From Escherichia coli O127:H6 str. E2348/69 (GTDB lineage: Bacteria; Pseudomonadota; Gammaproteobacteria; Enterobacterales; Enterobacteriaceae): 64,000 nucleotides of DNA. The notes under the pieces are model-generated. The model was not told where the DNA came from. It searched no databases and was given only the letters and a program-made list of their open reading frames with translations. Positions 4,017-33,862 of the stretch are shown piece by piece. Every line of letters starts with the position of its first letter. Positions within the stretch are counted from its first letter, which is position 1. The translations under genes were made by a program, and so were the position numbers. The stretch is from assembly GCF_000026545.1 (NCBI RefSeq), contig NC_011601.1. One strand, 5' to 3'.

Positions 4017-4727
4017 TTAATAATAATCGATCGTATTTTTGATGGTGTAAACCCGTTCGACGGCGGGTTTTACTCCTTCATCAACAATGATTAGCTGACA
4101 GTCCACCGGATTGGCGTGATTGTCATACTCACAGCTCTGTTTTACATTACCAACCCGTTGATTATTCAGTAAAGTAACCGCTGTGTAATCTAATTTTTTG
4201 ATCGGGTCCGTTGATGGCGTGGCGCTGACAGATAATGTTTTATCGTTACTTGTTGTGGTTTTACCCAGCGGATACCCCTGATCATCATAGCGATATTCCA
4301 TCTGCATCTGTTTGCTGCTGGCTTTAATCACGAAACCATTATCATCGGTTTCCCAACTCACCCCGGCAGAAGGTAATTCTGCTAGCTGGCATTTTCCCTG
4401 CAAACGAACTCTTTTCTCCAGCGTCTCGGCATCACGGTAATAATTGGCGTCCAGTACCAGGGCAACCAAGGTATTATTTTCCAGATCCAGTAATTCGAGA
4501 GAATCAAAACAGCCTTCTTCCGACAAAGTCCCCGAAACACGTTTCGTCACTTCACCTTGCTCATCCATTAATGTCTGAGTGAAATCTTTTACGGGACCAC
4601 GCAGCGGATCAAAATCGAATTCATTAGAGAAACTGGCCATCTCCGGGGTAAATGAAAGTGTTACCTCTGTGCGGTCACATCCTGTGAGTAATATCGCGAG
4701 TAAGCATGGCAGTAATTTGTATTTCAC
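4017..4727 (-). CDS. ynfC: UPF0257 family lipoprotein
   Basis: ORF 4017..4763; start placed at in-frame GTG 4725-4727 giving MKYKLLPCLLAILLTGC lipoprotein signal with lipobox, AGGTG RBS 6 nt upstream. Confidence 0.8.
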   Translation of the reverse strand: MKYKLLPCLLAILLTGCDRTEVTLSFTPEMASFSNEFDFDPLRGPVKDFTQTLMDEQGEVTKRVSGTLSEEGCFDSLELLDLENNTLVALVLDANYYRDAETLEKRVRLQGKCQLAELPSAGVSWETDDNGFVIKASSKQMQMEYRYDDQGYPLGKTTTSNDKTLSVSATPSTDPIKKLDYTAVTLLNNQRVGNVKQSCEYDNHANPVDCQLIIVDEGVKPAVERVYTIKNTIDYY

Positions 4728-4834: not shown

Positions 4835-5140
4835 ATGAAACTCTCAACCTGCTGTGCCGCGCTTCTGCTCGCCCTCGCCTCACCCGCGGTACTCGCCGCG
4901 CCGGGATCCTGTGAGCGCATACAGCGCGATATATCACAGCGCATTATCAATAATGGCGTACCCGAAAGCAGCTTCACGTTAAGTATTGTACCCAATGACC
5001 AGGTTGATCAGCCTGATTCCCAGGTCGTCGGGCATTGCGCTAATGATACGCATAAAATTCTCTACACCCGTACCACCAGCGGTAACGTCTCTGCTCCCGC
5101 GCAGTCTACCCAGGATAACGCGCCTGCTGAACCGCAGTAA
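4835..5140 (+). CDS. ynfD: DUF1161 family periplasmic protein
   Basis: ORF 4793..5140; start at internal ATG giving 101-aa product with signal peptide; AAGGAG upstream. Confidence 0.8.
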   Translation: MKLSTCCAALLLALASPAVLAAPGSCERIQRDISQRIINNGVPESSFTLSIVPNDQVDQPDSQVVGHCANDTHKILYTRTTSGNVSAPAQSTQDNAPAEPQ

Positions 5141-5156
5141 CACATTATCGACTGAA

Positions 5157-5179
5157 CGCCGGATACGACACATCCGGCG
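5157..5179 (+). terminator. GC-rich hairpin downstream of ynfD (stem CGCCGGA/TCCGGCG), REP-like, weak U tract
   Basis: inverted repeat read directly from sequence 17 nt after ynfD stop. Confidence 0.3.
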
Positions 5180-5225
5180 ATTTGAACATACAACATAATC
5201 CCACCTTATTACTCATACCCTTCTA

Positions 5226-5239
5226 TTGATATGGATTAA
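5226..5239 (+). promoter_or_regulatory. FNR-like site TTGAT-N4-ATTAA upstream of ynfE
   Basis: 9/10 match to FNR consensus TTGAT-N4-ATCAA about 100 bp upstream of ynfE ATG; ynfEFGH is an anaerobic operon. Confidence 0.35.
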
Positions 5240-5338
5240 TAATTATTAACCCCAAATGGGTAGACTCTCTCTATTGTTAGCGCGCTAAATATTCAATATA
5301 TAAACATTTATATAACGATAAAGAACAGGGAGTGAGTT

Positions 5339-7765
5339 ATGTCCAAAAATGAACAAATGGTGGGCATCAGCCGCAGAACACTCGTTAAATCTACCGCGAT
5401 AGGTTCTCTGGCGCTGGCTGCAGGCGGTTTTTCTTTGCCGTTTACCCTGCGCAGTGCAGAAGCAGCGGTACAACAGGCCAACGAAAAAGTGGTCTGGGGT
5501 GCCTGTTCCGTCAACTGTGGTAGCCGCTGTGCACTTCGTCTGCATGTTAAAGATAATGAAGTGACCTGGGTGGAAACTGACAACACCGGCAGCGACGAGT
5601 ATGGCAACCATCAGGTACGCGCCTGTTTGCGCGGTCGCTCCATCCGTCGGCGTATTAATCATCCCGATCGCCTGAATTACCCAATGAAACGCGTGGGCAA
5701 ACGCGGCGAAGGCAAATTCGAACGGATTAGCTGGGATGAAGCCCTGGATACTATCGCCAGTAGCCTGAAAAAAACCGTCAAACAATATGGCAATGAGGCT
5801 GTATATATTCAGTACTCTTCGGGGATTGTTGGCGGCAATATGACCCGCTCTTCTCCATCAGCCTCGGCGGTCAAACGCCTGATGAACTGCTACGGCGGTT
5901 CACTAAATCAGTATGGCTCCTACAGCACTGCGCAAATTTCCTGTGCCATGCCCTACACCTACGGCAGTAATGATGGCAACAGCACCACGGATATTGAAAA
6001 CAGCAAGCTGGTCGTGATGTTTGGTAACAACCCGGCTGAAACCCGCATGAGCGGCGGTGGCATCACCTATCTTCTTGAAAAAGCACGCGAGAAATCGAAC
6101 GCAAAAATGATTGTTATCGATCCGCGATATACCGATACGGCTGCTGGTCGTGAAGATGAATGGCTTCCTATTCGCCCGGGCACCGATGCCGCGCTGGTTG
6201 CGGGTATTGCCTGGGTATTGATTAACGAAAATCTCGTTGATCAACCTTTTCTCGATAAATACTGCGTCGGCTATGACGAAAAAACCTTACCCGCAGATGC
6301 ACCCAAAAATGGTCACTATAAAGCCTATATTCTTGGTGAAGGCGATGATAAAACAGCGAAAACGCCGCAGTGGGCTTCGCAAATTACAGGTATCCCGGTA
6401 GACCGTATCATCAAACTGGCGCGTGAAATTGGCACAGCAAAACCCGCTTATATCTGCCAGGGCTGGGGGCCGCAACGCCAGGCAAACGGCGAGCTGACGG
6501 CACGCGCTATTGCTATGTTGCCTATTTTGACGGGCAATGTCGGCATCAGCGGCGGAAATAGTGGTGCGCGTGAATCGACCTACACCATTACCATCGAACG
6601 CTTGCCGGTGCTGGATAATCCGGTCAAAACGTCAATCTCCTGCTTCAGCTGGACAGATGCTATCGATCATGGCCCGCAAATGACGGCAATCCGCGACGGC
6701 GTCCGGGGCAAAGATAAACTAGATGTGCCCATTAAGTTCATCTGGAACTACGCGGGAAATACCCTGGTTAATCAGCATTCTGACATCAACAAAACGCATG
6801 AAATTCTGCAGGACGAATCGAAATGCGAAATGATTGTGGTCATCGAAAACTTTATGACCTCATCGGCAAAATATGCCGACATTCTGCTGCCAGACCTGAT
6901 GACCGTTGAGCAGGAAGATATTATTCCTAACGACTACGCCGGTAACATGGGATATCTCATTTTCCTCCAGCCTGTCACCAGCGAAAAATTCGAACGCAAA
7001 CCAATTTACTGGATCCTGAGTGAAGTCGCGAAACGTCTTGGACCTGACGTCTATCAAAAGTTCACTGAAGGTCGCACGCAGGAACAATGGTTACAACATC
7101 TGTACGCCAAAATGCTTGCCAAAGATCCGGCGTTACCGTCTTACGACGAATTAAAAAAAATGGGTATCTATAAGCGTAAAGATCCCAATGGTCATTTTGT
7201 CGCCTACAAAGCATTTCGTGACGACCCCGAGGCAAATCCACTTAAAACGCCTTCCGGTAAGATTGAAATTTATTCCAGCAAGCTGGCGGAAATTGCCCGT
7301 ACCTGGGAACTGGAAAAAGATGAAGTGATAAGCCCACTGCCGGTTTATGCCTCAACCTTTGAAGGCTGGGACTCCCCTGAACATAGTGCCTTCCCACTGC
7401 AACTGTTTGGTTTCCATTACAAATCCCGTACGCACTCGACCTACGGCAACATTGATGTCCTGAAGGCAGCCTGCCGTCAGGAAGTGTGGATCAACCCTAT
7501 AGATGCACAGAAACGTGGGATTGCCAACGGCGATATGGTGCGGGTGTTTAACCATCGTGGCGAAGTTCGGCTACCAGCCAAAGTGACACCACGCATTCTC
7601 CCTGGAGTTAGTGCTATGGGCCAGGGAGCCTGGCACGAGGCCAATATGTCTGGCGATAAAATCGACCACGGCGGCTGTGTGAATACGCTAACCACTCTGC
7701 GCCCTTCACCACTGGCGAAGGGAAACCCGCAGCACACTAATCTGGTCGAGATCGAAAAAATATAA
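5339..7765 (+). CDS. ynfE: Tat-exported molybdopterin oxidoreductase catalytic subunit, DmsA paralog (selenate reductase YnfE)
   Basis: ORF 5339..7765 (808 aa); twin-arginine motif SRRTLVK; DMSO reductase family; recognised as YnfE. Confidence 0.95.
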   Translation: MSKNEQMVGISRRTLVKSTAIGSLALAAGGFSLPFTLRSAEAAVQQANEKVVWGACSVNCGSRCALRLHVKDNEVTWVETDNTGSDEYGNHQVRACLRGRSIRRRINHPDRLNYPMKRVGKRGEGKFERISWDEALDTIASSLKKTVKQYGNEAVYIQYSSGIVGGNMTRSSPSASAVKRLMNCYGGSLNQYGSYSTAQISCAMPYTYGSNDGNSTTDIENSKLVVMFGNNPAETRMSGGGITYLLEKAREKSNAKMIVIDPRYTDTAAGREDEWLPIRPGTDAALVAGIAWVLINENLVDQPFLDKYCVGYDEKTLPADAPKNGHYKAYILGEGDDKTAKTPQWASQITGIPVDRIIKLAREIGTAKPAYICQGWGPQRQANGELTARAIAMLPILTGNVGISGGNSGARESTYTITIERLPVLDNPVKTSISCFSWTDAIDHGPQMTAIRDGVRGKDKLDVPIKFIWNYAGNTLVNQHSDINKTHEILQDESKCEMIVVIENFMTSSAKYADILLPDLMTVEQEDIIPNDYAGNMGYLIFLQPVTSEKFERKPIYWILSEVAKRLGPDVYQKFTEGRTQEQWLQHLYAKMLAKDPALPSYDELKKMGIYKRKDPNGHFVAYKAFRDDPEANPLKTPSGKIEIYSSKLAEIARTWELEKDEVISPLPVYASTFEGWDSPEHSAFPLQLFGFHYKSRTHSTYGNIDVLKAACRQEVWINPIDAQKRGIANGDMVRVFNHRGEVRLPAKVTPRILPGVSAMGQGAWHEANMSGDKIDHGGCVNTLTTLRPSPLAKGNPQHTNLVEIEKI

Positions 7766-7825
7766 CCCACTACGACCATAAATTTTGACATGACATTTTG
7801 TTTGAAAAGCAATAAGTGAGTAATG

Positions 7826-10249
7826 ATGAAAATCCATAACACAGAGGCGCTCATGTCGGCTGAAATCAGTCGTAGAAGTCTGATGAAAACCTCCGCACTT
7901 GGCAGTCTCGCGCTGGCAAGCAGTGCTTTCACTTTGCCGTTTTCCCAAATGGTCCGAGCGGCACAGGCACCGGTAGAAGAGAAAGCGGTCTGGAGTTCCT
8001 GCACCGTTAACTGCGGGAGCCGCTGTCTGTTACGTTTGCATGTGAAAGATGACACCGTGTACTGGGTGGAGTCTGATACGACAGGTGACGACGTTTACGG
8101 TAATCATCAGGTTCGGGCATGTTTACGCGGGCGCTCTATCCGCCGACGGATGAATCATCCTGACAGGTTGAAATATCCCATGAAGCGCGTCGGCAAGCGC
8201 GGTGAAGGTAAATTTGAACGGATAAGTTGGGACGAAGCCCTGGATACCATCAGTGATAATCTTCGGCGGATCCTAAAAGATTACGGCAATGAGGCTGTAC
8301 ATGTTCTCTATGGAACAGGCGTAGATGGCGGAAACATCACCAACTCAAACGTCCCGTACCGTCTGATGAACTCTTGCGGTGGTTTTCTCAGTCGCTATGG
8401 CAGCTACAGTACCGCACAGATCAGTGCCGCAATGAGTTATATGTTCGGTGCCAATGATGGCAACAGCCCGGATGATATCGCCAATACGAAACTGGTCGTT
8501 ATGTTCGGAAATAACCCGGCAGAAACACGGATGAGCGGCGGTGGTGTCACTTACTACGTCGAGCAAGCCCGCGAACGTTCAAACGCACGCATGATCGTCA
8601 TCGATCCACGTTATAACGACACAGCTGCCGGGCGTGAAGATGAATGGCTGCCCATTCGCCCTGGCACCGATGGCGCACTGGCCTGTGCGATTGCCTGGGT
8701 ACTGATTACTGAAAACATGGTCGATCAGCCATTTCTCGACAAATATTGTGTTGGTTACGATGAAAAAACGCTGCCAGCTAACGCTCCACGTAACGCGCAT
8801 TATAAAGCCTATATTCTGGGCGAAGGGACTGACAGCATAGCTAAGACGCCGGAATGGGCAGCAAAAATCACCAGCATCCCGGCAGAAAAAATTATCCAGT
8901 TGGCACGAGAGATCGGTTCAGCAAAACCGGCTTATATTTGTCAGGGTTGGGGGCCACAACGACATTCCAACGGCGAGCAAACGTCCCGCGCTATTGCCAT
9001 GCTTTCCGTTCTCACCGGTAACGTCGGCATAAACGGCGGCAACTCAGGTGTACGCGAAGGTAGCTGGGATCTGGGGGTAGAATGGTTCCCGATGCTCGAG
9101 AATCCAGTTAAAACGCAGATTTCCGTCTTTACATGGACAGATGCCATCGACCATGGTACGGAAATGACCGCGACCCGTGATGGTGTTCGAGGAAAAGAAA
9201 AACTGGATGTCCCCATCAAGTTTTTATGGTGCTACGCCAGTAACACATTGATCAATCAACATGGCGACATCAATCACACCCATGAGGTGCTTCAGGATGA
9301 CAGCAAGTGCGAGATGATTGTTGGCATTGACCACTTCATGACTGCCTCGGCTAAGTATTGCGATATCCTGTTACCCGACCTGATGCCAACAGAGCAAGAA
9401 GACCTTATCTCTCATGAGTCTGCCGGGAATATGGGCTATGTGATCCTCGCCCAACCCGCAACCTCAGCAAAATTTGAACGCAAACCCATCTACTGGATGC
9501 TGAGCGAAGTCGCCAAACGCTTAGGACCAGACGTTTATCAAACCTTTACTGAAGGTCGCAGTCAGCATGAATGGATCAAATATCTCCATGCGAAAACGAA
9601 GGAACGTAACCCTGAGATGCCCGACTACGAGGAGATGAAAACGACCGGGATCTTTAAGAAAAAATGCCCGGAAGAACACTACGTCGCTTTCCGCGCATTC
9701 CGTGAAGATCCACAGGCAAACCCGTTGAAAACACCTTCGGGGAAAATCGAAATTTATTCTGAACGACTGGCGAAGATTGCAGATACCTGGGAATTGAAAA
9801 AAGATGAAATTATTCATCCCCTTCCTGCGTATACCCCAGGTTTTGATGGCTGGGACGATCCCCTGCGGAAAACCTATCCACTGCAACTAACGGGCTTCCA
9901 CTACAAAGCGCGTACCCACTCCAGCTACGGCAATATTGATGTGTTACAGCAGGCCTGCCCACAAGAGGTGTGGATCAACCCTATTGATGCTCAGGCACGC
10001 GGTATCCGTCATGGCGATACCGTGCGGGTATTTAACAATAATGGAGAAATGCTGATTGCCGCAAAAGTGACTCCGCGTATTCTGCCTGGCGTTACCGCCA
10101 TCGGGCAAGGTGCGTGGCTTAAAGCGGATATGTTTGGTGACCGGGTCGATCACGGCGGCAGTATCAATATTCTGACCTCTCACCGCCCTTCACCGCTGGC
10201 AAAGGGAAACCCGTCGCACAGCAATCTTGTCCAGATCGAAAAGGTTTAA
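7826..10249 (+). CDS. ynfF: Tat-exported molybdopterin oxidoreductase catalytic subunit, DmsA paralog YnfF
   Basis: ORF 7823..10249; twin-arginine motif SRRSLMK; tandem paralog of ynfE; start at second ATG (7826) with better RBS spacing. Confidence 0.9.
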   Translation: MKIHNTEALMSAEISRRSLMKTSALGSLALASSAFTLPFSQMVRAAQAPVEEKAVWSSCTVNCGSRCLLRLHVKDDTVYWVESDTTGDDVYGNHQVRACLRGRSIRRRMNHPDRLKYPMKRVGKRGEGKFERISWDEALDTISDNLRRILKDYGNEAVHVLYGTGVDGGNITNSNVPYRLMNSCGGFLSRYGSYSTAQISAAMSYMFGANDGNSPDDIANTKLVVMFGNNPAETRMSGGGVTYYVEQARERSNARMIVIDPRYNDTAAGREDEWLPIRPGTDGALACAIAWVLITENMVDQPFLDKYCVGYDEKTLPANAPRNAHYKAYILGEGTDSIAKTPEWAAKITSIPAEKIIQLAREIGSAKPAYICQGWGPQRHSNGEQTSRAIAMLSVLTGNVGINGGNSGVREGSWDLGVEWFPMLENPVKTQISVFTWTDAIDHGTEMTATRDGVRGKEKLDVPIKFLWCYASNTLINQHGDINHTHEVLQDDSKCEMIVGIDHFMTASAKYCDILLPDLMPTEQEDLISHESAGNMGYVILAQPATSAKFERKPIYWMLSEVAKRLGPDVYQTFTEGRSQHEWIKYLHAKTKERNPEMPDYEEMKTTGIFKKKCPEEHYVAFRAFREDPQANPLKTPSGKIEIYSERLAKIADTWELKKDEIIHPLPAYTPGFDGWDDPLRKTYPLQLTGFHYKARTHSSYGNIDVLQQACPQEVWINPIDAQARGIRHGDTVRVFNNNGEMLIAAKVTPRILPGVTAIGQGAWLKADMFGDRVDHGGSINILTSHRPSPLAKGNPSHSNLVQIEKV

Positions 10250-10259
10250 GGAGTAGCCC

Positions 10260-10877
10260 ATGACCACACAATATGGATTTTTTATCGATTCCAGCCGCTG
10301 TACTGGCTGTAAAACCTGCGAACTGGCGTGCAAAGATTTTAAAGATCTTGGCCCGGAAGTCAGTTTCCGCCGTATTTATGAATATGCTGGCGGCGACTGG
10401 CAGGAAGATAATGGCGTCTGGCACCAGAACGTGTTCGCTTATTATCTCTCCATCTCCTGTAACCATTGCGATGACCCCGCATGTACAAAAGTCTGCCCCA
10501 GCGGCGCAATGCATAAGCGTGAAGATGGCTTTGTGGTGGTTGATGAAGATGTTTGTATCGGCTGCCGCTACTGCCACATGGCTTGTCCGTACGGCGCGCC
10601 ACAGTACAATGCTGAAAAAGGGCACATGACGAAGTGCGATGGTTGTTATTCGCGCGTCGCCGAGGGGAAACAACCCATATGTGTCGAATCCTGCCCGCTG
10701 CGTGCACTTGAGTTCGGTCCAATTGAAGAGCTGCGCCAGAAGCACGGCACTCTGGCTGCCGTCGCGCCACTGCCGCGCGCACATTTCACAAAACCCAATA
10801 TCGTTATCAAACCTAACGCCAACAGCCGCCCGACCGGCGATACCACTGGTTATCTGGCTAATCCGGAGGAAGTGTAA
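10260..10877 (+). CDS. ynfG: 4Fe-4S ferredoxin-type subunit, DmsB paralog
   Basis: ORF 10260..10877 (205 aa); four CxxCxxCxxxCP clusters. Confidence 0.95.
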   Translation: MTTQYGFFIDSSRCTGCKTCELACKDFKDLGPEVSFRRIYEYAGGDWQEDNGVWHQNVFAYYLSISCNHCDDPACTKVCPSGAMHKREDGFVVVDEDVCIGCRYCHMACPYGAPQYNAEKGHMTKCDGCYSRVAEGKQPICVESCPLRALEFGPIEELRQKHGTLAAVAPLPRAHFTKPNIVIKPNANSRPTGDTTGYLANPEEV

Positions 10878-10878
10878 A

Positions 10879-31499: not shown

Positions 31500-33862
<2,363 letters not shown>

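Follow-up and report, generated by a model that had tools for sequence, protein, structure and literature searches.

In the 64,000-nucleotide stretch of Escherichia coli O127:H6 str. E2348/69 analysed here (the window), the adjacent genes ynfE and ynfF are very probably old, independently evolving paralogs of an already published operon, between which in-register hybrid genes form rarely. A more tentative proposition, which we are inclined to doubt rather than to accept as a whole, is that these ynfE'-'ynfF hybrids form repeatedly in nature, in both E. coli and Salmonella, when a deletion guided by homology joins repeats of about 70% identity, with junctions of 1-14 nt, and that at least some of them are working enzymes.

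The gene pair and its operon

The features of the locus, with positions counted in the window, are as follows.

4835..5140, + strand: ynfD (DUF1161), the upstream neighbour; mapped from RefSeq to the window, with the translation checked
5339..7765, + strand: ynfE, open reading frame of 808 aa, also in RefSeq; Tat-exported molybdopterin/[4Fe-4S] catalytic subunit of the selenate/tellurate reductase
7766..7822, + strand: ynfE-ynfF spacer of 57 nt (60 nt to the RefSeq start at 7826), read directly from the sequence
7823..10249, + strand: ynfF, open reading frame of 808 aa from the first ATG; paralogous catalytic subunit
10260..10877, + strand: ynfG, four-cluster FeS electron-transfer subunit common to both catalytic subunits (TIGR02951, 264.8 bits, cutoff 214.1)
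10879..11733, + strand: ynfH, DmsC-type membrane anchor, the quinol oxidase subunit (PF04976 DmsC, E = 4.6e-127; RefSeq)
11776..12390, + strand: dmsD, Tat proofreading chaperone for DmsA, YnfE and YnfF (NCBIfam NF008632, 344 bits)

An earlier note on this DNA described the pair as adjacent 808-codon reading frames on the same strand for the Tat-signal molybdoenzymes ynfE and ynfF of the DmsA family, and the open reading frames, the profile HMMs, the motifs and the RefSeq annotation of E. coli E2348/69, which is 100% identical to the window and names both genes ynfE and ynfF, all agree with this description. The coordinates given there hold in that both frames have 808 sense codons, while the ynfF start at 7826 trivially mixes counts of 809 and 808 codons including the stops. 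Position 7826 is the second ATG of ynfF, from which RefSeq obtains a protein of 807 aa.

The two proteins are identical at 567 of 801 positions in BLASTP (71%, with 85% positives and E = 0), a likeness which, judged from the alignment, is far above chance. Both of the long identical peptides quoted in the earlier note are present in each protein, GNHQVRACLRGRSIRRR at residue 89 of YnfE and 93 of YnfF and KRVGKRGEGKFERISWDEALDTI at residues 117 and 121, respectively, and the longest peptide common to the two has 26 aa. A twin-arginine (Tat) motif is located at residue 11 of YnfE (SRRTLVK) and at residue 16 of the YnfF reading frame (SRRSLMK), and the FS0 [4Fe-4S] cysteine group Cx3Cx3Cx31CxR extends over residues 56-98 of YnfE and 60-102 of YnfF, with the spacing of 31 residues in each. 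The Pfam architecture of both is Molybdop_Fe4S4, Molybdopterin (PF00384) and Molydop_binding (PF01568). With TIGR02166, the model of the DmsA/YnfE/YnfF subfamily of Mo-bisPGD oxidoreductases, YnfE scores 1397.6 and YnfF 1285.5 bits (cutoff 777.7). YnfE passes the YnfE model NF041885 of NCBIfam (1792.8 bits, cutoff 1675) and stays below the cutoff of the YnfF model NF041884 (1475.3 bits, cutoff 1650); conversely, YnfF passes NF041884 with 1773.3 bits and stays below NF041885 with 1483.4 bits, and both are under the cutoff of 1600 of the DmsA-specific model (1347 bits for YnfE and 1317 for YnfF). According to these profile scores, the two genes belong to the DmsA/YnfE/YnfF subfamily, each in its own curated family.

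Directly downstream of the pair come ynfG, ynfH and dmsD, which gives the operon order ynfEFGH-dmsD. The pair heads this operon, with each gene predicted to encode a DmsA-family, Tat-exported catalytic subunit carrying a molybdenum cofactor and a [4Fe-4S] cluster; inside the 57-nt spacer no promoter-like or terminator-like site is seen. This is a well-known textbook operon, the paralogy of which is already published. The operon is attributed to Lubitz & Weiner 2003 and Guymer et al. 2009, as far as their citation in PMC5203670 tells, and the DmsA paralogy of the pair has been in print since 2003. YnfE and YnfF are described as alternative isoenzymes of a membrane-bound selenate/tellurate reductase to which YnfG, YnfH and DmsD are common (PMC5203670, PMC12724226), with DmsD binding the signal peptides of DmsA, YnfE and YnfF (PMC5203670) and with most of the reductase work being done by YnfE and a minor part by YnfF (PMC5203670, PMC12724226, PMC12096835); the selenate/tellurate reductase activity is also ascribed to Fujita et al. 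2021, in the form in which PMC12096835 cites that work. The window shows no difference from the E. coli/Salmonella operon of this literature, having the same gene order and the same YnfE/YnfF identity, which for Salmonella is likewise given as 71% (PMC5203670, PMC12724226, PMC12096835).

It is noted that E. coli DmsABC resembles this system in its Tat-exported A subunit with the FS0 cluster and the molybdenum cofactor, its four-cluster B subunit, its DmsC-type anchor and its dependence on DmsD, with DmsA being 67.5% identical to YnfE and 66.5% to YnfF. By contrast, DmsABC has its own locus 717 kb off, a single A subunit and no chaperone gene, and it also differs in the reported substrates, which in the literature are selenate and tellurate for the Ynf enzymes.

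Divergence and ancestry of the two copies

The DNA identity between ynfE and ynfF is 69.7%, with 79, 84 and 46% at the first, second and third codon positions, respectively, and the longest stretch without a mismatch has 17 nt, a length that in comparison with shuffled sequences is at the level of chance (P = 0.63). From these values the synonymous sites appear saturated and the split of the two genes appears old. The identity of ynfE to ynfF is 69.9-71.3% within genomes versus 69.5-71.8% between genomes, and no signal of gene conversion or concerted evolution is obtained from this comparison, from the longest run against the shuffles or from the clustering of discordant sites near the junctions. 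The two genes evolve independently. The proteins P0071 and P0075, considered as tandem neighbours that would show conversion, were discarded, since P0071 occupies the ynfE position and its contig stops behind this gene.

The minimal efficient processing segment for recombination is about 20-30 bp, and the identical tracts of ynfE and ynfF fall short of this length. Because the identity is only 69.7% and no identical run exceeds 17 nt, the pair is a poor substrate for canonical RecA recombination. The earlier note had regarded the copies as substrates for homologous recombination, implying the classical mechanism, and had named low nucleotide identity as the observation that would speak against it; low identity is what the pairwise alignment gives. 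It had also taken the pair for a tandem duplication of a dmsA-like gene, and of this statement the tandem DmsA-family paralogs stand, but the split is ancient, with saturated synonymous sites and with YnfF outside YnfE, and ynfF may either have arisen in place or have been acquired.

The phylogenetic evidence is as follows. In 200 of 200 neighbour-joining bootstraps the YnfE orthologs, which range from Budviciaceae to Enterobacteriaceae, form a clade that excludes YnfF, and in 0 of 200 is YnfF nested among them; parsimony needs 4,391 steps with YnfF outside and 4,407-4,429 steps (16-38 more) for the nested placements, where either method can misplace a long branch and where the tree of YnfE, YnfF and DmsA, drawn without an outgroup, leaves undefined which two of the three are sisters. 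According to these trees, YnfF appears to be a separate ancient lineage that branches outside all Enterobacterales YnfE orthologs. The shared-derived-character test, which has only 4-5 informative sites, finds in YnfF three of the four states derived in Enterobacteriaceae YnfE, and since this test leans against the tree, an early burst after a younger duplication may have taken place. The conservation is about 92% among the YnfF orthologs versus about 87% among the YnfE orthologs.

Among 80 species loci, the pair of ynfE and ynfF is present in four genera only, i.e., Escherichia, Salmonella, Citrobacter (C. amalonaticus) and Pseudocitrobacter, and in the other Enterobacterales there is ynfE alone in most genera and ynfE with a true dmsA ortholog in Yersiniaceae and Budvicia. 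The ynfE-dmsA-dmsB-dmsC-dmsD operons of Serratia, Rahnella, Ewingella and Budvicia are similar to the operon in the window in that a YnfE ortholog (79-82%) is directly followed by another A subunit of the DmsA family and dmsD comes last, but this second A subunit is not YnfF; it is orthologous to DmsA proper (74-82% to DmsA of E. coli). The single gene of E. whittamii is ynfE-type up to the last two codons and then continues with the ynfF tail and the ynfF-ynfG spacer. As proof of a terminal crossover this case was rejected as ambiguous, because the same tail and spacer are found on any A gene that adjoins a B gene, including the single-copy ynfE of Citrobacter and Klebsiella. In the literature searched, no report of the phylogenetic restriction of ynfF was found.

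Natural hybrids and decay of the locus

The earlier note foresaw that the copies could be deleted or fused, and such products exist: 10 of the 5,426 complete genomes of E. coli have them, and so do many draft genomes of E. coli and Salmonella. The survey for single-copy or fused variants that it proposed gives in-frame hybrids, which are rare, and ynfE alone in most related genera; its prediction was right, its implied mechanism probably wrong, and the events are rare. The positions of the junctions and of the deletions are as follows.

ynfE 6029..6042 and ynfF 8513-8526, + strand: JCC-EE 7-type crossover tract, AACCCGGCAGAAAC, 14 nt, identical in K-12 ynfE and ynfF
ynfE 6483..6500 and ynfF 8967-8984, + strand: ECONIH4-type crossover, with the last ynfE-type and the first ynfF-type site 1 nt apart
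8540..9119, + strand: common ynfF pseudogene deletion of 580 nt, carried by JJ1887 and by about 10% of complete genomes
9894-10167, + strand: second ynfF deletion, 274 nt

When only the flanks were used as the query against the 5,426 complete genomes, they were found to be joined in only 15, and in 10 of the 15 the span is 6,707 nt, corresponding to a loss of exactly 2,484 nt. These ten genomes (0.18%), which represent two events, have one 2,484-nt repeat unit gone and carry one intact in-frame ynfE'-'ynfF gene of 2,427 nt. The switch from E to F is clean in two hybrid types, at 730 of 730 and 730 of 732 informative sites. The ynfD left flank is kept before the single hybrid gene (loci L002, L003, L092-L097 and L102), as in all fused variants, and the 57-nt ynfE-ynfF spacer is lost from every one of them. 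The junction tracts of the hybrids are 14, 1, 11, 9, 5 and 5 nt long, in surroundings of about 70-85% identity; in E2348/69 itself, the ynfE and ynfF copies of the JCC-EE 7-type tract differ by one base.

The exact ECONIH4 hybrid protein is present on 68 contigs. The protein databases contain at least nine distinct junctions in E. coli, at least five in Salmonella and at least one in another species, i.e., at least 15 in three species, among the best 120 of more than 6,000 matches to seeds that were mid-gene chimeras, so that these are minimum counts with a biased spread of positions; a hybrid whose junction is close to either end of the gene sits hidden within the main 90% clusters. Beyond the ten complete genomes, the hybrids come mostly from short-read draft assemblies only. 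The genomic context was confirmed for four more, three of which (P0051, P0055 and P0050) are each found in two assemblies built independently from reads (NCBI and Logan) and the fourth, P0059 of Salmonella, in one assembly. The reciprocal product would be a triplication that includes a ynfF-to-ynfE hybrid, and no such hybrid was found with a synthetic mid-gene F-to-E query, which matched nothing better than normal YnfE (87%) or YnfF (84%). Both hybrid lineages in the complete genomes have a substitution at an invariant arginine (R100C and R104W), and these hybrids may be non-functional. In the literature searched, no description of ynfE'-'ynfF hybrid alleles was found. Note also that PGAP names the hybrids inconsistently, calling one ynfF and giving another a generic family name.

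Plain decay is commoner than fusion, with internal deletions of ynfF in about 10% of complete genomes. At neither of the two ynfF deletion junctions (8540..9119 and 9894-10167) is microhomology found, and the non-fusion deletions at the locus in general lie out of register, with 0-1 nt of microhomology. Decay of the locus is fairly frequent in E. coli populations and is due mainly to illegitimate deletions and to the insertion of IS elements, with ynfF as the gene most affected; dmsD is kept even where ynfE through ynfH' has been deleted (L089).

Explanations, mechanism and implications

It could be argued that the pair results from a fairly recent tandem duplication and that the copies are ordinary RecA-dependent substrates undergoing frequent unequal crossing-over and gene conversion, as the long identical peptides common to both proteins and the existence of fused one-copy variants would suggest. 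We consider this very improbable, because the DNA identity is 69.7%, with 46% at third positions and a longest run of 17 nt that is due to chance, because the lack of excess identity within genomes implies no conversion, and because YnfF falls outside all YnfE orthologs. Moreover, ordinary RecA substrates are inconsistent with the junction identity of 1-14 nt and with fusions in only 0.18% of complete genomes, and ordinary crossing-over is inconsistent with the reciprocal product not being found with the mid-gene query. A different origin of ynfF, which is possible although we lean somewhat against it, is that the ancestor common to Escherichia, Salmonella, C. amalonaticus and Pseudocitrobacter acquired an already diverged gene of the DmsA family horizontally, at a site between ynfE and ynfG, with no duplication on site. 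The donor lineage is not found, the tandem A-subunit pairs (ynfE and dmsA) of Yersiniaceae and Budvicia imply that operons with two A subunits are an old architecture, and the gene adjoining the B-subunit gene always has the same tail and spacer, which fits a downstream copy that kept the original junction after duplication in place; the small character test also hints at an affinity of YnfF to Enterobacteriaceae YnfE. On the other hand, YnfF is about equidistant (69-73%) from every YnfE ortholog and outside them all, the pair is restricted to four genera among the 80 species loci, and a sliding-window scan finds a ynfF-like 3' segment in 0 of 76 single-copy ynfE genes, where repeated loss by in-register fusion should leave such segments. 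The same scan led us to reject hidden chimerism in the single-copy species orthologs.

The hybrids themselves could be thought to be artefacts, namely collapsed assemblies, assembler mis-joins or chimeric library molecules. Most of them do come from draft assemblies, and two low-coverage metagenome contigs, of ERZ1303434 and ERZ1310463, carry an equally in-register dmsA-to-ynfE hybrid that would need a lethal 717-kb deletion, which means that doubtful, chimeric-looking contigs can occur in public data. This explanation is nevertheless hardly credible in view of the hybrids in ten complete genomes from several laboratories, of the same allele being inherited clonally in 8 complete genomes and 68 contigs, of the agreement between the NCBI and the independently built Logan assemblies for three hybrids, and of the isolate genomes in which the two-gene structure is replaced outright with no accompanying minor variant. 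In addition, a mis-join in the assembler graph is impossible for the E/F hybrids because the longest exact match of 17 nt is shorter than the assembler k-mers. A k-mer mis-join was rejected also for the dmsA-to-ynfE contigs, with junction tracts of only 5 and 8 nt and no shared run above 14 nt; these contigs may be due to an in-vitro chimeric read at 1.4-2.7x coverage.

We thus return to rare in-register fusion of old paralogs, the mechanism of which we infer from the anatomy of the junctions alone. Rarely, ynfE and ynfF pair in register and exactly one 2,484-nt repeat unit is lost, with the product consisting of the 5' part of ynfE (promoter and Tat signal) and the 3' part of ynfF and leading directly into ynfG. 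Because the identity at the junctions is 1-14 nt and the polarity is that of deletion only, the mechanism is likely homology-guided and not a classical long-tract RecA exchange. The candidates are template switching during replication or slipped misalignment between the nearby direct repeats, single-strand annealing after a break, and a rare homeologous RecA exchange that escapes mismatch repair. Deletion between bacterial tandem repeats via RecA-independent slipped misalignment has reportedly been studied by Lovett and colleagues. The human CYP11B1/CYP11B2 hybrids (PMC8750845) are similar in that one repeat unit is lost in register, giving a hybrid of the 5' part of one gene and the 3' part of the other under the promoter of the first, whereas in the ynf case the repeats are only about 70% identical, the junction identity is 1-14 nt, the host is bacterial and the products seen are all deletions.

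Taken by itself, the gene pair offers no novelty, and the hybrids are a modest result. The pair serves as a caution that tandem paralogs need not be recent duplicates, which bears on annotation pipelines and pangenome models for ynfE, ynfF and dmsA, and the in-register hybrids of genes that are 70% identical suggest that homology-guided deletion works at such divergence with almost no identity at the junction. As natural domain swaps, the hybrids could help to locate the basis of the major role of YnfE and the minor role of YnfF in selenate reduction. If it is true that the hybrids are recurrent and partly working, recombination of the homeologous or template-switch kind close to the replication terminus would have a natural reporter in this locus, which would also provide a ready-made set of domain swaps between the two isoenzymes.

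The gene pair and the age of its split

Over the region tested, the window matches the chromosome of enteropathogenic E. coli E2348/69 at 100% identity. The two DmsA-family genes that head the ynfEFGH-dmsD operon are read from the following open reading frames, with ynfG, ynfH, dmsD and then clcB downstream (RefSeq annotation together with domain and family profiles).

5339-7765, + strand: ynfE (RefSeq name), 808 sense codons
7823-10249, + strand: ynfF, 808 sense codons; RefSeq start at the second ATG, 7826

YnfE and YnfF share the domain set Molybdop_Fe4S4, Molybdopterin and Molydop_binding, the twin-arginine motif and the Cx3Cx3Cx31CxR cluster motif, while each lies above the cutoff of its own curated NCBIfam model only. 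By BLASTP 567 of 801 residues are identical (71%), and the two peptides quoted in the earlier note are found in each protein, so that its description of two paralogous Tat molybdoenzymes of 808 codons holds. For YnfE, YnfF and E. coli DmsA no solved structure was found, the nearest being that of Rhodobacter DMSO reductase.

The pair is an ordinary, previously known feature. As reported through PMC5203670 and PMC12096835, Lubitz & Weiner (2003) recognised paralogy between the ynfEFGHI operon and dmsABC; according to the account in PMC5203670, Guymer et al. (2009) found that the ynf operon encodes the selenate reductase, with YnfE as the main catalytic subunit and a small contribution of YnfF. 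The identity of the Salmonella proteins is given as 71% (PMC5203670), the two are termed paralogous selenate reductase isoenzymes, and selenate reduction is abolished in a delta-ynfEF strain (PMC12724226).

Other features noted in the window

38679-39944, - strand: uidC (glucuronide porin), annotated in E2348/69 as a pseudogene interrupted by an internal stop
50446-51037, - strand: region of an IS200C transposase gene, adjoining STnc490
50914-51037: STnc490, 146 bits, the sole Rfam match in the window
56388-56911: rsxC, internal tandem repeats (period ~96 nt, 89-90% identity; off-diagonal self matches)

In a codon alignment of the E2348/69 pair the DNA identity is 69.7%, with 79%, 84% and 46% at the three codon positions, the last value placing synonymous sites near saturation. 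The longest identical run, 17 nt, does not exceed the mean of 17.7 nt in shuffles that preserve codon position (P = 0.63), and thus there is no sign of recent conversion. Moreover, the identity between ynfE and ynfF is the same inside genomes (69.9-71.3%) as across genomes (69.5-71.8%), implying that the copies evolve without concerted evolution.

Among 80 loci with a YnfE ortholog, one genome per species, most surveyed Enterobacteriaceae (including Enterobacter, Klebsiella, Kluyvera, Kosakonia, Raoultella, the C. freundii group and Escherichia whittamii) have a single ynfE directly before ynfG-ynfH-dmsD or before dmsD alone. Besides E. coli, the pair is present only in Citrobacter amalonaticus, two Salmonella lineages and Pseudocitrobacter, and in Serratia, Rahnella, Ewingella and Budvicia ynfE stands beside a true DmsA ortholog. 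In 200 of 200 bootstraps of the neighbour-joining tree the YnfE orthologs form a clade that excludes YnfF, and YnfF never groups with Escherichia/Salmonella YnfE; having no outgroup, this tree does not itself settle which of YnfE, YnfF and DmsA are sisters. Parsimony requires 4,391 steps with YnfF outside all YnfE versus 4,407-4,429 with YnfF nested, where it is noted that either method can misplace long branches. YnfF is not fast-evolving at present, since between E. coli and Salmonella it is about 92% identical, versus about 87% for YnfE. A tiny character test leans the opposite way, YnfF sharing 3 of 4 derived states of Enterobacteriaceae YnfE. From these sequence comparisons, the split is most likely older than the Enterobacterales radiation. 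The claim of a tandem duplication of a dmsA-like gene is thus borne out as to paralogy but not as a simple duplication story, the split being old and YnfF lying outside all YnfE; ynfF may have arisen in place or may have been inserted later.

Several further observations concern the surveyed loci. In Salmonella arizonae the two genes have 69.3% DNA identity, and their longest identical run reaches 29 nt, versus 17 nt in E. coli. At loci of Enterobacter, Lelliottia and Yokenella (L009, L013, L016, L027, L030, L037 and others) ynfE is followed directly by dmsD without ynfG and ynfH, an arrangement that may be linked to srnA, the single-gene selenate reductase of Enterobacter cloacae (PMC12724226). 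The lone ynfE of Escherichia whittamii (L007, 7001-9440), 96% identical to that of E. coli in amino acids, has ynfG directly next to it, and its final two codons and the spacer match the E. coli ynfF terminus; since such a tail is generic, the gene may either have undergone a crossover in its final ~10 nt or have stayed single-copy throughout. The 30 nt past the stop (GGAGTAACCGATGACAACCCAGTATGGATT) are the same at the E. coli dmsA-dmsB junction (L087, 3905-3934) and at the ynfF-ynfG junctions of Salmonella and C. amalonaticus, with the Pseudocitrobacter ynfF-ynfG junction two bases off, which hints at strong constraint or at dmsB/ynfG exchange.

Losses and natural hybrids

State of the locus among 5,426 complete E. 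coli genomes

ynfE covered over at least 80%: 5,111 genomes
ynfF covered over at least 80%: 4,739 genomes
ynfF remnant with internal deletions of 580 and 274 nt (window 8540-9119 and 9894-10167), no microhomology: about 10%, on the basis of 6 of 60 evenly spaced rows of the match ranking; e.g. JJ1887 (L088)
neither gene matched: about 110 genomes
6,376-nt deletion (~6.4 kb; window 5171-11546), ynfE, ynfF, ynfG and most of ynfH lost, dmsD kept: e.g. L089
JCC-EE 7 type hybrid: 2 genomes; ynfE-to-ynfF switch after nt 690, in a 14-nt identical tract; 730 of 730 informative sites fit one switch
ECONIH4 type hybrid: 8 genomes; switch after nt 1155, with 1 nt between flanking informative sites; 730 of 732 sites fit one switch

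Where ynfF carries the 580- and 274-nt deletions, ynfE is intact. The 6,376-nt deletion is present in at least 25 genomes among the matches listed, out of the ~110 with neither gene, and the dmsD that it retains encodes a chaperone that DmsA needs as well. A 2026 pangenome study places ynfE and ynfF among the E. coli metabolic genes most often pseudogenised (PMC13322260). In strain SEV4 (L091, locus 5519-8197) an IS26-aph(3')-Ia-IS26 composite element splits ynfE in two, and in FDAARGOS_1262 (H10, NZ_CP069517.1) a ynfD-ynfG span of 5,447 nt versus 5,401, aligned in two pieces, implies a ~46-nt insertion somewhere in the locus.

With a query made of the flanks only, two matched pieces were joined only if at most ~2.7 kb apart, so that joining occurs only in genomes with ~2.1 kb or more lost between them. 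The flanks were joined in 15 of the 5,426 complete genomes, in 10 of them over a span of 6,707 nt; these 10 therefore lack exactly 2,484 nt, equal to the offset between the starts of ynfE and ynfF. In all 10, ynfD and ynfG flank one intact gene of 2,427 nt. These in-register fusions, 0.18% of the complete genomes, are by alignment of two independent kinds.

The hybrids of L002 and L003 have private substitutions at residues 100 and 104 (motif ACLRGRSIRRR; window ynfE ~5636-5650), namely R100C in the JCC-EE 7 hybrid and R104W in the ECONIH4 hybrid. The arginine hit is invariant in 92 of 92 YnfE, YnfF and DmsA sequences, and the motif is intact in the other hybrids; judged by this conservation, the substitutions may signal loss of function in the complete-genome hybrid lineages. 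A single complete genome has its best ynfE match at 90-95% identity, a value that the two hybrid classes, at 79% and 83%, do not explain; the candidates are a third hybrid whose junction lies towards the 3' end, a patch of conversion and a divergent allele.

The exact ECONIH4 hybrid protein occurs in 68 contigs. With this protein as the search seed, which makes the junction counts lower bounds, at least 9 distinct junctions in total were found among E. coli 808-aa in-register hybrids and at least 5 among 812-aa hybrids of Salmonella enterica, together with at least one hybrid in a Citrobacter-like species. The context of ynfD, one gene and ynfG was confirmed for four further hybrids: P0051, P0055 and P0050, each in two assemblies made independently from reads, and the Salmonella hybrid P0059, in one assembly. 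Assembly error is ruled out as their source, since the longest exact ynfE/ynfF match, 17 nt, is shorter than any assembler k-mer and assembly is thus unable to make such joins. In all hybrids the N-terminal part is from ynfE and the C-terminal part from ynfF; a synthetic ynfF-to-ynfE query, which probed mid-gene junctions, gave no match better than normal proteins. A different product, the 1,220-aa E. coli protein P0040, carries a tandem duplication of ~410 residues inside ynfE, joining ...STFPLQL to IRPGTDAALVAG....

Two metagenome contigs (L098, 8001-10457, and L099, 577-3033; from ERZ1303434 and ERZ1310463) have in-register hybrids with dmsA at the 5' and ynfE at the 3' end, of 818 aa each, with different junctions of 5 and 8 nt identity. 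The gene order of L098, lrp-ftsK-lolA-rarA-serS-[hybrid]-ynfF-ynfG-ynfH-dmsD-clcB, is that left by a 717-kb deletion, which is expected to be lethal. Both contigs are thinly covered (2.7x and 1.4x). With 14 nt as the longest shared run, a k-mer mis-join is ruled out; both an in-vitro chimeric read and a rare dead-end recombinant are possible.

Mechanism of fusion

The earlier note proposed that the copies, as substrates for homologous recombination, could be deleted or fused, and suggested a survey of other genomes for single-copy or fused variants. Such variants do exist, in 10 of the 5,426 complete genomes; but they are rare, and the mechanism that the note implied is probably not the right one. 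Low nucleotide identity, which it named as refuting its proposal, is what is found (69.7%), and by this criterion the copies should not recombine. Junction identity is minimal (tracts of 14, 1, 11, 9, 5 and 5 nt at the DNA level), and the products seen are deletions only. The hybrid junctions are clean single switches in exact register, with mosaic patches absent. We thus infer an event other than classical long-tract RecA exchange.

The remaining deletions at the locus lack this register and have 0-1 nt microhomology, and out-of-register in-frame ynfE-ynfF fusions (743-1,206 aa) are also many. In-register events make up very roughly a tenth to a fifth of the ynfE-ynfF deletions in what is a biased sample, versus about 1 in 2,400 by chance. 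The pairing of ynfE and ynfF is probably guided by extended similarity of 70-85%, not by junction microhomology alone. Three generally known mechanisms are candidates: template switching during replication, or slippage by misalignment of neighbouring direct repeats; single-strand annealing following a double-strand break; and rare homeologous RecA exchange that would escape mismatch repair. It is also noted that the ynf locus lies in the terminus region, with tus in the window at 31533-32462, and that direct-repeat recombination is reported as raised in this region; the location as a factor in the fusion is only a lead.

In the searchable literature no description of recurrent natural ynfE'-'ynfF hybrids was found; these hybrids are of modest interest.
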